Shown one piece after another: positions 3,417 to 28,562 of a DNA stretch of 64,000 nucleotides. The notes under the pieces are model-generated. The model was not told where the DNA came from and did not search any database. It worked only from the letters and a program-made list of their open reading frames with translations. The stretch lies in sequence record OP555982.1, one strand, 5' to 3'. Position 1 is the stretch's first letter. Each line of letters begins with the position of its first letter. A program made the position numbers and the translations under genes. Source of the DNA: Escherichia phage vB_EcoM-UFV11.

Positions 3417-3568
3417 ATATCAAGAACCGTCATTGAAATGCAAAATAAAATTATTGAAATAAAACCATCTGGAGTACTAAAGAATCCAACCCAACACGCT
3501 CTAGTGAAAAGATAAAACGCGAGAAAAAGTATCACATATCCAAGAAATATCATTATATCAAACTCCAT
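3413..3568 (-). CDS. small hydrophobic membrane peptide (51 aa), 47.1-like position
   Basis: ATG at 3568..3566; stop TGA overlaps gp47 ATG (ATGA); translation MEFDIMIFLGYVILFLAFYLF...; below ORF-track cutoff. Confidence 0.4.
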   Translation of the reverse strand: MEFDIMIFLGYVILFLAFYLFTRACWVGFFSTPDGFISIILFCISMTVLDI

Positions 3569-3576
3569 ATAAAGCT

Positions 3577-3594
3577 AAAGGGCCGAAGCCCTTT
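3577..3594 (-). terminator. GC hairpin (GGGCUUCGGCCC on transcript, UUCG tetraloop) at 3' end of a-gt
   Basis: aaagggccgaagcccttt perfect inverted repeat overlapping a-gt stop; weak U-tract, may act as stabiliser/partial terminator. Confidence 0.45.
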
Positions 3595-4795
3595 ATTTTG
3601 TAATAATGTCAAACTGCTCTTTAAAGCAGAAGCTTGAATCTTGGTGCTGATACAAAAATTCATAAGCTTTTTCGCGTTCACGGTCATAAAGAGTTCGGTC
3701 AGATGACAGTTCTTTAATACGTTCAAATGTTGATTCCATGTCATTTTCATCAAACCAAATGATACCGCTATCATGCGAGGTCAAAGGAGTATTATCAACA
3801 CGGAATTTTAAATTTTCGCCTGTAGATTTCCAAAATACCGGAATTGTTCCACATGCACCAAGCTCGAGATGAGTATATTCTAAAGAACGTTGTAGATATT
3901 TTTTGTCCAACTTACTCAGCTGATAACCAAATCCGGATTTACTCATGCGTTCAAGCATTTCGCTATTTACATAACGGTCAAGAATTTGCGTTGGCAAATT
4001 AGGAGCAATTTTAATTTGGTCTACTTGATGAAGACGATAATACTCGTATGGAATTCCTTTTTCTTTAATAGGAATGAACGCTGGAGAACGTTCCAGACCT
4101 TCCATAATAGTACTTAGTCCTGCAGGTTTAAGATGTTTTTCATGAAAATCAAACATCTGATAAAAACCTTTCCACGTAGTAGTACGACCAATCCAACGAT
4201 TGATATTCATGTTAATTTCAGAAACATCTTTCCAGTAGGTTGATCGAACCTTTGCAATATCCATCGGAGGCTGAAAGTTATATACTGTCGGTGCTTCTTC
4301 AATATCATCAAACAGAGAAACTGTTTCAGGATACCATTCTTTCATCAGAACTTTATTAAAATCGCCATTATCAGAATGGCTAAAAATAACATCAGCTCGA
4401 CGAACAGTTTCTTCTAATCCCAAATTTCGACGCAAAGAAAGAGAAGAATGGTCATGTTGATAAACTACAACACGAACAGAAGGTTTAATGTTATCAATAA
4501 TTTTTTTATAGTTATTAATAGTGTCTTCTTCAACTGAAGTAGCAGGAACTGAATTGATAATTAGAATATCACAATCATTTACCAGCTTAAGTGTTTTATC
4601 GTATTCTTTTGCCAATAAAACCGGAATTGAAAATGATTTATAATCATGCGCGCAATTACGAGTAAATGATTTATCTTTAGCATAAACCAAAGTTACTTCA
4701 TGACCATTTTTAATAAACCAATCACGTTGCTCAAGAGAAAATTTAGTTACACCACAACCTTCAAGACCTCGAGCCATAAAAATACATACTTTCAT
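3593..4795 (-). CDS. a-gt: DNA alpha-glucosyltransferase
   Basis: 400 aa, length and sequence character of T4 Agt (hydroxymethylcytosine alpha-glucosyltransferase); position between 47 and 55. Confidence 0.85.
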   Translation of the reverse strand: MKVCIFMARGLEGCGVTKFSLEQRDWFIKNGHEVTLVYAKDKSFTRNCAHDYKSFSIPVLLAKEYDKTLKLVNDCDILIINSVPATSVEEDTINNYKKIIDNIKPSVRVVVYQHDHSSLSLRRNLGLEETVRRADVIFSHSDNGDFNKVLMKEWYPETVSLFDDIEEAPTVYNFQPPMDIAKVRSTYWKDVSEINMNINRWIGRTTTWKGFYQMFDFHEKHLKPAGLSTIMEGLERSPAFIPIKEKGIPYEYYRLHQVDQIKIAPNLPTQILDRYVNSEMLERMSKSGFGYQLSKLDKKYLQRSLEYTHLELGACGTIPVFWKSTGENLKFRVDNTPLTSHDSGIIWFDENDMESTFERIKELSSDRTLYDREREKAYEFLYQHQDSSFCFKEQFDIITK

Positions 4796-25401: not shown

Positions 25402-25983
25402 CTAACCGAGCTTTTTAGTTAATTCATTCCAATGTTTTCTACACAAAGAAACATAAATTTCATCACCAATACAGATTTGATTACCTTCTTTAACTGGTGT
25501 TCCATCTTCCATTAATCGAGCTGTCATAATCGCTTTTTTACCGCAATGACAAACTGCCTTTAGTTCAATAAGTTTATCTGCAATCGCTAAAAGTTCTTTA
25601 GAACCTTCAAACAATTTTCCAGCGAAATCAGTCCTTAATCCATAAGCCATAACAGGAACATTATATGTATCAACAATTCGACTTAATTGATGCACCTGTT
25701 CAGTTTTTAAAAACTGAGCTTCATCTACAAATACGCAATGAATATCTTTTTGTGCTTCAGCCCATTTATAGAACTCGAAAATATCCATATCATCTGTAAT
25801 AATATTCGCTTCCTGTTTAATTCCAATGCGAGAAACAACTTCACAGACAGAATCGCGAGTATCAATAGCAGGCTTAAGAACTAATACACTCATTCCACGT
25901 TCTTTATAATTATGTGCAGCAGTCAAAAGAGAAGCAGATTTTCCAGCATTCATTGCTGCATAAGTAAAAATTAAACTCGCCAT
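25402..25983 (-). CDS. tk: thymidine kinase
   Basis: 193 aa; P-loop NAGKSAS, Zn-binding cysteines near C-terminus. Confidence 0.9.
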   Translation of the reverse strand: MASLIFTYAAMNAGKSASLLTAAHNYKERGMSVLVLKPAIDTRDSVCEVVSRIGIKQEANIITDDMDIFEFYKWAEAQKDIHCVFVDEAQFLKTEQVHQLSRIVDTYNVPVMAYGLRTDFAGKLFEGSKELLAIADKLIELKAVCHCGKKAIMTARLMEDGTPVKEGNQICIGDEIYVSLCRKHWNELTKKLG

Positions 25984-25992
25984 ATCACCTTC

Positions 25993-26178
25993 TTAAAGCG
26001 TATTCACATAAGCTATTAATTCATTTTCTTTCTTATCAAACCGATCAGCAAATTCTTCCTGCTGCTCGGGAGATAGCGGGCCGTATTCATCATAAAAGGT
26101 GTTTGCTTCTATATGCTCATCTAGAAGTTCATGGATAAGCTCAAACAATTTATCTTTTTGTTCTTTGCTTAGACTCAT
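25993..26178 (-). CDS. small acidic hypothetical protein
   Basis: 61-aa ORF. Confidence 0.45.
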   Translation of the reverse strand: MSLSKEQKDKLFELIHELLDEHIEANTFYDEYGPLSPEQQEEFADRFDKKENELIAYVNTL

Positions 26179-26344
26179 ATATTAATTTCCAGGAGTTTTA
26201 AAATAATTCGCTTTTGCTTAAATATTTCCATAGTTAAATGACCAGTATCTTTTTGACCGATTCCAATGGCAAAACCTTTATTAACAGCGAGTTCAATTAA
26301 ATTATCAAGCTCACGTAACACTTCGTATTGTAACTCAAAACTAT

Positions 26345-26572
26345 TCATTTTGGTTTACCTTCTTTAACGAAATCAGGATAAGGGTAAAATCCTGAATAAA
26401 ATCCTTCACCTTTATGATTGATGCATCCTTTATTAGAACAATAGCACCAATAATCGAAATCACAAGCCATTTCATCGTTGCATAAAGCAAAAACAACCGG
26501 CCACTTACACTTTTCACAGTGGGCATTTTTAAGAATACTAGTTTGGCTCATAACCATGTAACCTTTAAGCAA
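26345..26572 (-). CDS. cysteine-rich small protein
   Basis: about 70 aa with multiple Cys/His (CEKCKW..CNDEMACDFDYWCYCSNKGC). Confidence 0.45.
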   Translation of the reverse strand: MLKGYMVMSQTSILKNAHCEKCKWPVVFALCNDEMACDFDYWCYCSNKGCINHKGEGFYSGFYPYPDFVKEGKPK

Positions 26573-26760
26573 TATTCTTCTACATGTTGTTTACGACCTT
26601 TCTTATCAATAAAGGTATATTCAACGAATGTTCCAATGTAGTCTTTATCTACATCATGTGGACTATTAATTGGACATTTAGTACGGCAAATGCGTTCCCA
26701 TTGACGAATAATTTCCACTTTGTTTTTAGGATCAAACGGATGTGGGTAATGTACTTTCAT
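26548..26760 (-). CDS. hypothetical protein
   Basis: 70-aa ORF. Confidence 0.45.
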   Translation of the reverse strand: MKVHYPHPFDPKNKVEIIRQWERICRTKCPINSPHDVDKDYIGTFVEYTFIDKKGRKQHVEEYCLKVTWL

Positions 26761-27211
26761 AATCCACCACTATTAAATCAATATCAGGAGTAAACATGTC
26801 GATTAATTTAGAAACCTTATCCCAATCGCCGCCAGCAATACCACAACCTATGCGTGGAATGTAAATTACTGGTTTAAACAAAAGGGTTTCTGCCTGTAGA
26901 TTTAATTCTATCATGCAGTTTACTAAAGCACCATAATCAAGATTAGGACCTGGTTCGTATTGCGTATACAAGTTATAACATATGCCAAAACCATTAGGTT
27001 TATGTTTAAAAACAATAGACATATCGCCTAATTTATCACGAGAACCGTACTCGGTAGTGGTTTTATCTATTTCTAAAATTTTGGGATAGGCTCTTGCTAA
27101 TTGACCAGCTACACCACTGCCCATTGTATGAAAACAATTGCACCCGTGCGCAATAATATTACCTTCAAGAAAGAGGGCGACAATATCGCCCTTGATATAT
27201 TTTACAATCAT
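26732..27211 (-). CDS. macro-domain-like protein (putative ADP-ribose binding/processing)
   Basis: 159 aa; N-terminal KGDI...NxxxxG...GSGVAGQL and C-terminal IGCGIAGGDW resemble the macro-domain glycine-rich loops. Confidence 0.5.
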   Translation of the reverse strand: MIVKYIKGDIVALFLEGNIIAHGCNCFHTMGSGVAGQLARAYPKILEIDKTTTEYGSRDKLGDMSIVFKHKPNGFGICYNLYTQYEPGPNLDYGALVNCMIELNLQAETLLFKPVIYIPRIGCGIAGGDWDKVSKLIDMFTPDIDLIVVDYESTLPTSV

Positions 27212-27555
27212 CTAGTACTCAATCCTCGATTATAAGAATCTACCAAACGGTCAACCATTGAATGACAAGCGGCTTTATCTTTCTCCTCCGCAACTGAACA
27301 TTCTAAGGTATTCCACTTTTTAGCATATCGTTTTAATAATGTATCGTTTTTGTATCTGCTTGATTTATCTCTTTCTCCGTCTTTATATGCATATATTAAT
27401 TTCTGCGCAAATTCAGCTTGGCATGCTTTATTTTTCCCACAATAATCTGCCGCAGTGCGGTTCACATACTCCCTAATTTCAGTATATGATGTATCTGCTG
27501 ACGCATAAGCAGAAAATGAAATTAATCCTATACATAAAACCAAAATTTTAGTCAT
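27208..27555 (-). CDS. secreted/periplasmic hypothetical protein
   Basis: 115 aa; N-terminal signal peptide MTKILVLCIGLISFSAYASA. Confidence 0.55.
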   Translation of the reverse strand: MTKILVLCIGLISFSAYASADTSYTEIREYVNRTAADYCGKNKACQAEFAQKLIYAYKDGERDKSSRYKNDTLLKRYAKKWNTLECSVAEEKDKAACHSMVDRLVDSYNRGLSTR

Positions 27556-28093
27556 TTACTATTTCCAAAAGTTTATTATTTTTAAGGTAGTTAGCCTTTT
27601 CTAGGACTTCAGAAGCATATTTAGAACCTGCTTTAACATTCCATCCCGAATTATAAGAGGATATTGCTTTTCTTATATCGCCCTTATGTATATTTAACCA
27701 ATAAGAAAGTTCAATGTACGCCCAGGAAGCTGAATTGGATCGTTTATTCAACATTCTTTTTATTTCAGCATCGGTCATATTATAACCAAGTTCCTTAACT
27801 CTTGCTCGCATAGTAGGCAAATAATTTTGGAACATTCCATAAGCGTGATGCTTTGGTTTAGATTTTAAATTAACTCCGCCAGAGCTTTCTTGCCATAAAA
27901 TAGCAGCCATTATATGACCTAATCCGCTCTTGTGGATATTTTTATGTGTTTTATATTTTCCATCCTTAGAAAACTGTTCCCCGAATTGATACGCGTAACG
28001 CATGTTATCGAGTTGGACATTACTGAAAGTATGCTCGGAGCTATGTGCCATCATTGAAATGGCCAATAGACCAGCGAGTAGTGCTTTTCTCAT
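27548..28093 (-). CDS. periplasmic lytic transglycosylase-like protein (SLT domain)
   Basis: 181 aa; signal peptide; SLT motifs ILWQESSG, YGMFQ, SYNSG. Confidence 0.7.
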   Translation of the reverse strand: MRKALLAGLLAISMMAHSSEHTFSNVQLDNMRYAYQFGEQFSKDGKYKTHKNIHKSGLGHIMAAILWQESSGGVNLKSKPKHHAYGMFQNYLPTMRARVKELGYNMTDAEIKRMLNKRSNSASWAYIELSYWLNIHKGDIRKAISSYNSGWNVKAGSKYASEVLEKANYLKNNKLLEIVND

Positions 28094-28100
28094 GCTTACC

Positions 28101-28562
28101 TCATTGAGTTTTAATTACTGCTTTAGAAGCCTTTCCTGGTAAACGACGACTGTTAATAATTGCCATCCTGCATTGAAGCGACGGGTCTTTGAACTTCGCA
28201 TTAGGTTTACAAACTGTAAATCCAAGCCAAAGATTTCCATCTGTGATTTCTAAACGTCCAGGACGATATTCAACCCCATCAATAAAATCCTCGTCAATGT
28301 CAGGACGCGGAGGCATACTCAGGAATTCATTAACTTCTAAAACATGGTCTTTTATTTTATGGAATAATTCAAAAACGTATGTCTCATCAATCTCCCGTTG
28401 AATTGCGCGATCAAGAAGATGTTGAGAATATTTTAGATGAAACGATGAGACCCCTGCTGCTTTTGATGCCTCACGAATCTCATTGTTAATTTGACGAAAC
28501 TCCGACTCAAAGTGACGACGAAGCTTATTTCGACGGATAAAAACTTCTGTGTTGATAGTCAT
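28101..28562 (-). CDS. regB: RegB site-specific endoribonuclease
   Basis: 153 aa; sequence and length as T4 RegB; early promoter upstream. Confidence 0.85.
   Translation of the reverse strand: MTINTEVFIRRNKLRRHFESEFRQINNEIREASKAAGVSSFHLKYSQHLLDRAIQREIDETYVFELFHKIKDHVLEVNEFLSMPPRPDIDEDFIDGVEYRPGRLEITDGNLWLGFTVCKPNAKFKDPSLQCRMAIINSRRLPGKASKAVIKTQ

Follow-up and report, generated by a model that had tools for sequence, protein, structure and literature searches.

Macro-domain gene and its locus

In our study, a 64,000-nucleotide stretch of DNA from Escherichia phage vB_EcoM-UFV11 (OP555982.1), referred to as the window, has been analysed around a single gene of the region between tk and regB. 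This gene encodes a protein of 159 amino acids (aa), which is shown by its sequence and modelled structure to be a macrodomain, and it stands in the place which tk.4 (also named adfM) holds in phage T4. The open reading frame (ORF) had been pointed out in an earlier reading of the bare sequence (the original prediction) as a macro-domain-like protein at 26732-27211. The ORF listing matched these coordinates exactly, with an ATG start on the minus strand, and the placement between tk and regB was also found to be correct. The order of genes is tk, a tk.2 homologue, two small ORFs, a tk.3 homologue, the macro ORF, vs, vs.1 and regB, and the genes which define its position are given below.

26732..27211, minus strand: macro-domain gene, positional orthologue of tk.4 (adfM); ATG start, 159 aa; assigned from the ORF listing, Pfam, identity to T4, synteny, AlphaFold2 and Foldseek
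25402..25983: tk, neighbour of the macro ORF
26548..26760: tk.3 homologue, 70 aa, PHROG 2008, unknown function; 93% aa identity to T4 tk.3
27208..27555: vs, upstream of the macro ORF
27548..28093: vs.1
28101..28562: regB

Macrodomain fold and class

The Pfam Macro profile (PF01661), against which the original prediction had proposed to check the protein, matched it at 33.1 bits, above the gathering cut-off of 22 (E 6.2e-8), over profile positions 2-117 of 118. PHROG 335, which carries the label 'phosphatase', was matched with an E-value of 1.6e-71. In a phmmer search of the PDB sequences, all the significant matches were found to be macrodomains, namely BT1257 (2afc/2fg1, E 2e-10), Poa1p (6lfu, 1.8e-9) and SCO6735 (5e3b, 8.6e-8), with weaker matches to the M. 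tuberculosis DarG macrodomain (MtbDarG, 5m3i, 1.4e-5) and TARG1 (0.009). A profile of 59 homologues recovered the same proteins from the PDB at 1.4e-19 for BT1257, 1.4e-15 for Poa1p, 3.8e-15 for SCO6735, 9e-12 for MtbDarG and 9e-17 for TARG1.

The AlphaFold2 model, built on the alignment of the 59 homologues, showed a mean predicted local distance difference test (pLDDT) value of 94 and a predicted template modelling (TM) score (pTM) of 0.89, with seven strands and five helices predicted. Foldseek comparison of this model with the PDB gave 167 matches at E <= 0.001, and nearly all of the 50 listed matches are macrodomains or designed proteins based on one. TARG1 was the best match (E 2.5e-10, TM 0.72/0.81); Poa1p (6lfr, 2.9e-9), BT1257, TaqDarG (5m31, 1.7e-8), MtbDarG (5m3i, 3e-8) and SCO6735 (5e3b, 8e-8) were among the further top matches, and coronavirus Mac1 ranked after the ALC1-like matches at about 1e-6. 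A three-layer alpha/beta/alpha macro fold is predicted by the model together with its Foldseek matches, and the ORF is, as judged from sequence and model, a genuine macro-domain gene. The macro-domain assignment of the original prediction is borne out by the Pfam profile, by the sequence matches to solved macrodomains and by the fold. A chance ORF or a protein of non-macro fold was ruled out by the Pfam, PHROG, PDB sequence and Foldseek searches.

By sequence as well as by fold, the top PDB matches all belong to the ALC1-like class (TARG1, DarG, SCO6735, BT1257 and Poa1p), and on these two lines the class of the protein is ALC1-like. E. coli YmdB, with which the protein had been compared in the original prediction, is of the MacroD type and is not its actual relative. 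Membership of the MacroD/YmdB type was considered and rejected, as the NCBIfam equivalog for the O-acetyl-ADP-ribose deacetylase (YmdB) scored just 16.7 bits against a cut-off of 291.

The macro annotation is old and widespread. The family has carried a macro/A1pp annotation in T4 for some two decades, labels such as 'putative macro domain protein', 'phosphatase', 'Poa1p-like family protein' and A1pp are already present on the gene in several GenBank records, and macro domains have been reported in about 41% of myoviruses (PMC9503650).

Active site residues

Conservation was counted in the alignment of the 59 homologues. A joint alignment with known macrodomains was also used, for which the sequences of MtbDarG, TaqDarG, SCO6735, BT1257 and TARG1 were recovered from the PDB-search alignments and PhiKZ gp104 was translated using the methods section of its paper. 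The residues of the putative active site are located in the following stretches.

27098..27148, minus strand: residues 22-38, HGCNCFHTMGSGVAGQL; His22, Asn25 and the first glycine loop, predicted from conservation and alignment to bind the ADP-ribose phosphate
26960..26974, minus strand: residues 80-84, NLYTQ; Gln84 at the position of the catalytic Lys, from the joint and TARG1 profile alignments
26822..26857, minus strand: residues 119-130, PRIGCGIAGGDW; second glycine loop of the putative ADP-ribose pocket, with P119, G122, G124 and W130 invariant

The motifs named in the original prediction, KGDI (residues 7-10), NCFHTMG (25-31), GSGVAGQL (31-38) and IGCGIAGGDW (121-130), are all present; Asn and Gly are separated by five residues (N-x5-G), one more than in the NxxxxG of that prediction, and the second loop falls in the last third of the protein, short of its C-terminus. 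The loss of the glycine-loop residues in a proper alignment, which the original prediction had named as refuting it, is not seen; both loops persist, with G31, G33, A35, G122 and G124 invariant or nearly so, and the loop residues N25, G31-x-G33-x-A35 and G122-x-G124 are either invariant or at least 93% conserved. The residues invariant in all the homologues are H22, G23, N25, C26, G33, A35, D49, N80, Y82, Q84, P119, G122, G124 and W130. The two loops and the conserved Asn align with their counterparts in DarG, TARG1 and SCO6735, as in members of the macro superfamily. N25 shares its column with N27 of SCO6735, N22 of TaqDarG and N23 of PhiKZ gp104, and G122 and G124 align with G126 and G128 of SCO6735. 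Mutation of this Asn lowered the activity in each of SCO6735, TaqDarG and PhiKZ gp104 (PMC9411070, PMC5179494, PMC13309987).

Residue 84 is Gln in 59 of the 59 homologues. The same column holds Gln in SCO6735 (Q85) and BT1257, and Lys in TARG1 (Lys84), DarG (Lys80) and gp104. The window protein is of the Gln type, having Gln at the Lys position of TARG1 and DarG along with a positioning Asn (Q84 and N25, against Q85 and N27 of SCO6735). In SCO6735, Q85A was found to be dead and N27S nearly dead on DarT-modified DNA carrying thymidine-linked ADP-ribose (dT-ADPr), a mechanism has been proposed in which Gln positions the distal ribose and water mediates the reaction, and a mobile lysine-bearing loop has been implicated in DNA binding (PMC9411070). 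In DarG, K80A is inactive (PMC5179494).

Comparison with known macrodomains

SCO6735 of Streptomyces coelicolor (5E3B) and BT1257 (2AFC/2FG1) resemble the window protein in being stand-alone, in the Gln at the Lys position, in the locking Asn and in the RIGCGxAGG loop, and they are among its best PDB sequence matches (2e-10 to 9e-8; up to 1.4e-19 with the profile). However, they are just 25-27% identical to it and have a loop longer by 5-6 residues (with Lys89 and Lys94), which the phage family does not have. Val25 of SCO6735 corresponds to Gly23 in the phage family, and these two are cellular, DNA-damage-linked proteins and not phage counter-defence genes.

DarG (TaqDarG 5M31/5M3E and MtbDarG 5M3I) shares the macro fold (TM about 0.73-0.76), the conserved Asn and presumably the same substrate, dT-ADPr in single-stranded DNA, and it gave the top defence profile. 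At an identity of about 20-23%, the window protein has Gln in place of Lys80 and carries no PTKKHW motif. The NCBIfam DarG equivalog NF048014 scored 27.8 bits against a cut-off of 250 and matched only at about positions 2-146 of 338, so that the two-domain architecture of DarG was not found. A true DarG or a captured DarTG operon was rejected because the protein lacks both the C-terminal domain and the catalytic Lys, and because its gene is flanked by tk.3 and vs and not by a DarT gene.

Among phage proteins, PhiKZ gp104 is likewise a stand-alone macrodomain acting against DarTG2, and it has been reported to remove ADP-ribose from DarT2-modified DNA in vitro (Cell Reports 2026, PMC13309987). 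It differs in being of DarG type, with Lys in an FPTKDNW motif, and in being imported into the phage nucleus. Orthology with it was rejected, as BLASTP gave just 23 bits over 23 residues; by sequence, the T4-type and PhiKZ proteins are analogous macrodomains and not orthologues. Both of these non-orthologous phage macrodomains, T4 Tk.4 with Gln and PhiKZ gp104 with Lys, independently received the name AdfM.

Human TARG1/OARD1 (4J5R/4J5S) and yeast Poa1p (6LFQ-6LFU) are the top fold matches and have in common with the window protein the His-x-x-Asn/Ser region and the RIGCG loop. The Lys84/Asp125 dyad of TARG1, in which Asp125 is the second catalytic residue, is Gln84/Ala126 in the window protein. 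Poa1p has longer insertions and carries Phe152 where the phage family has Ala126.

Orthology with T4 Tk.4 and allele classes

The same slot in T4 (NC_000866) is occupied by tk.4, which encodes a protein of 155 aa (NP_049723) annotated as 'phosphatase; Tk.4; contains A1pp phosphatase motif'. Aligned without gaps over 155 of 155 residues, this protein and the window protein show 58% identity (E 4e-70), and all the 14 family-invariant residues are common to the two. The synteny of tk.3, the macro gene, vs, vs.1 and regB is the same in the window and in T4, and the annotation of phage JLBYU24 agrees with it. By position and sequence, the window macro gene is orthologous to T4 tk.4. Both genes lie between tk.3 and vs, show ATGA coupling and encode a single macro domain of 155-159 aa, whereas the window protein represents a distinct allele class, is longer by four residues at the C-terminus and has a gene overlapping tk.3 by 29 nt. 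The two overlaps of the gene are as follows.

27208..27211, minus strand: ATGA in which the stop codon of vs and the macro start codon overlap, from the sequence and the ORF ends; the T4 arrangement is alike
26732..26760, minus strand: last 29 nt of the macro ORF, shared in another frame with the 5' end of the tk.3 homologue

The ATGA overlap suggests, as read from the sequence, translational coupling of vs and the macro gene inside one operon. The 29-nt overlap with tk.3 is annotated likewise in JLBYU24, and that of T4 is just 4 nt. The four additional C-terminal residues of the window protein are PTSV, for which the model confidence is low.

From tk.3 through regB and beyond, the overall alignment identity of the DNA to T4 is about 92%. 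Within the macro gene, the first 150 nt match T4 with a nucleotide identity of 70-100%, which falls to 30-73% in the remainder. Because the protein identity is 58% and the divergent gene lies between near-T4 flanks, the gene is regarded as a diverged allele in a conserved frame. The greater similarity of the two classes in the 5' 150 nt suggests, at the level of sequence, either intragenic recombination or a stronger constraint on the N-terminal motif and a hairpin in this part of the gene.

Two deeply diverged allele classes, window-type and T4-type (the T4 gene lying at 3923-4390 of the T4 locus sequence, L002), coexist at the tk.4 locus of sequenced T-even phages. Alleles with at least 90% identity to the window protein were found in 318 phage records, and the T4-type allele in 224 records at this threshold and in another 159 at 80-90%. 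On these counts at >=90%, the window-type allele is no rarer than the T4 allele among sequenced Tequatroviruses, and it is also nearer to the family consensus. Of 50,697 phage records searched by tblastn, 2773 contained relatives. The window comes from a Tequatrovirus; Escherichia phage vB_EcoM-UFV09 and three siblings match the 2.1 kb around the ORF at 100% identity, and many further Tequatroviruses match it at 98%.

Probable counter-defence function

A counter-defence role is already known for the T4 orthologue from a preprint of November 2025. In a T4 transposon library grown on E. coli with DarTG2, only tk.4 came out as a significant hit, and its clean knockout made T4 sensitive to DarTG2; the authors named the gene adfM (anti-DarT factor Macrodomain) and described its product as structurally similar to MtbDarG (bioRxiv 10.1101/2025.11.20.689424). 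SCO6735, a stand-alone macrodomain of the Gln type, removes thymidine-linked ADP-ribose from DNA and protects against DarT (PMC9411070), and the DarG macrodomain by itself suffices as antitoxin (PMC5179494). The best defence-related profile for the window protein as well as for T4 Tk.4 was found to be DarG, in its macro half only, with E-values of 1.4e-6 and 2.5e-7 respectively in NCBIfam and 4.3e-7 and 1.3e-9 in PADLOC. The idea of the original prediction that the protein counters a host ADP-ribosylating defence is supported by our analysis and agrees with the DarTG2 resistance genetics of T4 tk.4. By analogy with these proteins, the most likely function, and a probable one, is the enzymatic removal of the ADP-ribose added by DarT2 to phage DNA.

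In the proposed mechanism, the protein would be a stand-alone, single-domain macrodomain enzyme of ALC1-like type, cotranscribed with its neighbours among the tk-vs genes. In the infected cell, it would bind the ADP-ribose put by host DarT2 on thymidine in single-stranded phage DNA and hydrolyse the ribose-base bond, by which replicable DNA would be restored and the DarTG2 abortive-infection system neutralised. It may be described as a putative orphan-antitoxin-like DNA ADP-ribosylglycohydrolase without the C-terminal DarT-binding domain of DarG. Catalysis would probably follow the scheme of SCO6735 and not the lysine scheme of DarG and TARG1, with Asn25 holding Gln84, Gln84 positioning the distal ribose and a water molecule performing the chemistry. 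A DarTG2 neutralisation by the window allele, and its putative Gln-based chemistry, would bear on phage host-range prediction and phage-therapy design.

A number of points weigh against removal of ADP-ribose from DNA as the function. In the joint alignment, the catalytic Lys of both DarG and TARG1 is replaced by Gln84, and the longer mobile loop of SCO6735 with Lys89 and Lys94 is absent, the phage family having QYEPGPNLDY, a shorter stretch free of lysines, where SCO6735 has QHGMKTGSKGAPVRY. The second glycine loop reads GCGIAGGDW, the family consensus, against GAGIGKGNW in T4 Tk.4. The evidence for T4 Tk.4 is genetic and comes from a preprint, in which enzymatic removal of ADP-ribose from DNA is termed 'likely' (bioRxiv 10.1101/2025.11.20.689424); for the 58%-identical window allele, the DarTG2 role and the enzymatic action would carry over by analogy from this orthologue and from SCO6735. 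Further, the family does not appear from sequence to be derived from a DarTG operon, and no direct trace of such a capture is seen (one bacterial homologue examined), because this 40% identical homologue from Pelagimonas is stand-alone and lies amid unrelated housekeeping genes without a DarT neighbour. Lastly, yeast Poa1p, which is an ADP-ribose 1''-phosphate phosphatase, ranks among the best matches by sequence.

As a rather unlikely extension of the DNA-repairing function, the Tk.4-type macrodomains may constitute a branch of DNA ADP-ribosyl hydrolases with a Gln-dependent mechanism of its own, apart from PhiKZ gp104 and SCO6735. The two allele classes (window-type GCGIAGG and T4-type GAGIGKG) would then be the mark of an arms race with different DarT2 variants, or of a broadening of the substrates accepted. 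If so, the widened substrates could be, for example, other ADP-ribosylated nucleic acids or soluble ADP-ribose signals, and the window-type and T4-type alleles would not be interchangeable.

The Poa1p matches (6lfu with E 1.8e-9 by sequence and 6lfr with E 2.9e-9 by fold) are also among the grounds for an enzyme of small-molecule ADP-ribose derivatives, that is, a Poa1p-like ADP-ribose 1''-phosphate phosphatase or an O-acetyl-ADP-ribose deacetylase clearing NAD-derived by-products or signals. H22 and T29 align with H23 and S30 of Poa1p, which, from the titles of the PDB entries, were the residues picked for mutant structures, and a review has argued that phage Macro domains may favour soluble ADP-ribose derivatives (PMC9503650). 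The RefSeq label of T4 Tk.4 with its A1pp phosphatase motif and the PHROG 335 label point in the same direction, but 'phosphatase' is here a transferred label and not the result of an assay. Moreover, Phe152 of Poa1p is Ala126 in the Tk.4-type family, no KptA/Tpt1 or 2H phosphoesterase partner was found in the gene neighbourhood, and the sole recorded phenotype of the T4 orthologue is DarTG2-specific. Such a role is unlikely as the explanation of the gene, and it could coexist with the role on DNA, with which it is compatible.

The T4 genetic data do not separate binding from catalysis, and protection from DarTG2 might also be mainly non-catalytic, the protein either binding and inhibiting DarT2 or covering the modified DNA as a shield. 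The dead Q85A mutant of SCO6735 still inhibits DarT efficiently in vitro, beyond the DarG and TARG1 mutants (PMC9411070), whereas the macro-only K80A of TaqDarG failed to inhibit DarT (PMC5179494). The C-terminal DarT-binding domain of DarG is absent from the window protein, whose match to the DarG profile covers about positions 2-146 of 338, and the whole pocket including N25 and Q84 is invariant in the homologues, which argues for selection on catalysis. The non-catalytic explanation is quite improbable.

A function as eraser or tuner of the ADP-ribosylation or RNAylation of host proteins by the phage's own Alt, ModA and ModB, transferases encoded by T-even phages, is highly improbable, as Alt and Mod modify arginine, macrodomains are not known to cleave the Arg-ADP-ribose bond, and alt and modA/modB lie outside the macro-gene neighbourhood, unlinked to it. 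The ALC1-like TARG1 and SCO6735 do act on protein ADP-ribose too (PMC9411070), but the screen reported tk.4 as a hit under DarTG2 alone (bioRxiv 10.1101/2025.11.20.689424), and the regulation of Alt, ModA and ModB modification suggested in the original prediction has no support in this analysis or in the literature examined.

Neighbouring features

The segment from tk to tk.3 (25993-26760) is unlike that of T4, as tk.1 is missing and the tk.2 homologue is just 55% identical. It carries two small ORFs which are absent from the T4 segment.

26175-26348: small ORF, 57 aa, PHROG 3452, function unknown
26345-26572: small ORF, about 70 aa, Cys-rich, PHROG 2306, function unknown

In JLBYU24, the tk.3 homologue (3549-3761 of its locus sequence, L001) is labelled 'putative ABC transporter ATP-binding protein' and several small ORFs of the mobD region are labelled 'molybdopterin-guanine dinucleotide biosynthesis protein MobD'; both labels look like annotation-transfer errors. 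A promoter and terminator scan of 25-30 kb gave 15 promoter-like sites against 19.6 in shuffled sequences, which is no enrichment, and it did not indicate an expression class. Within codons 7-13 of the macro ORF, a perfect GC-rich hairpin of 8 bp, AGGGCGATATTGTCGCCCT, followed by CTTTCTTG, is located at 27174-27192 on the minus strand. The same sequence is present in T4, JLBYU24 and ECML-123-2, a rho-independent terminator is annotated for it in OL631480.1, and its local folding energy is ordinary (z -1.0). This hairpin might attenuate the read-through from vs or affect the translation of the macro gene.

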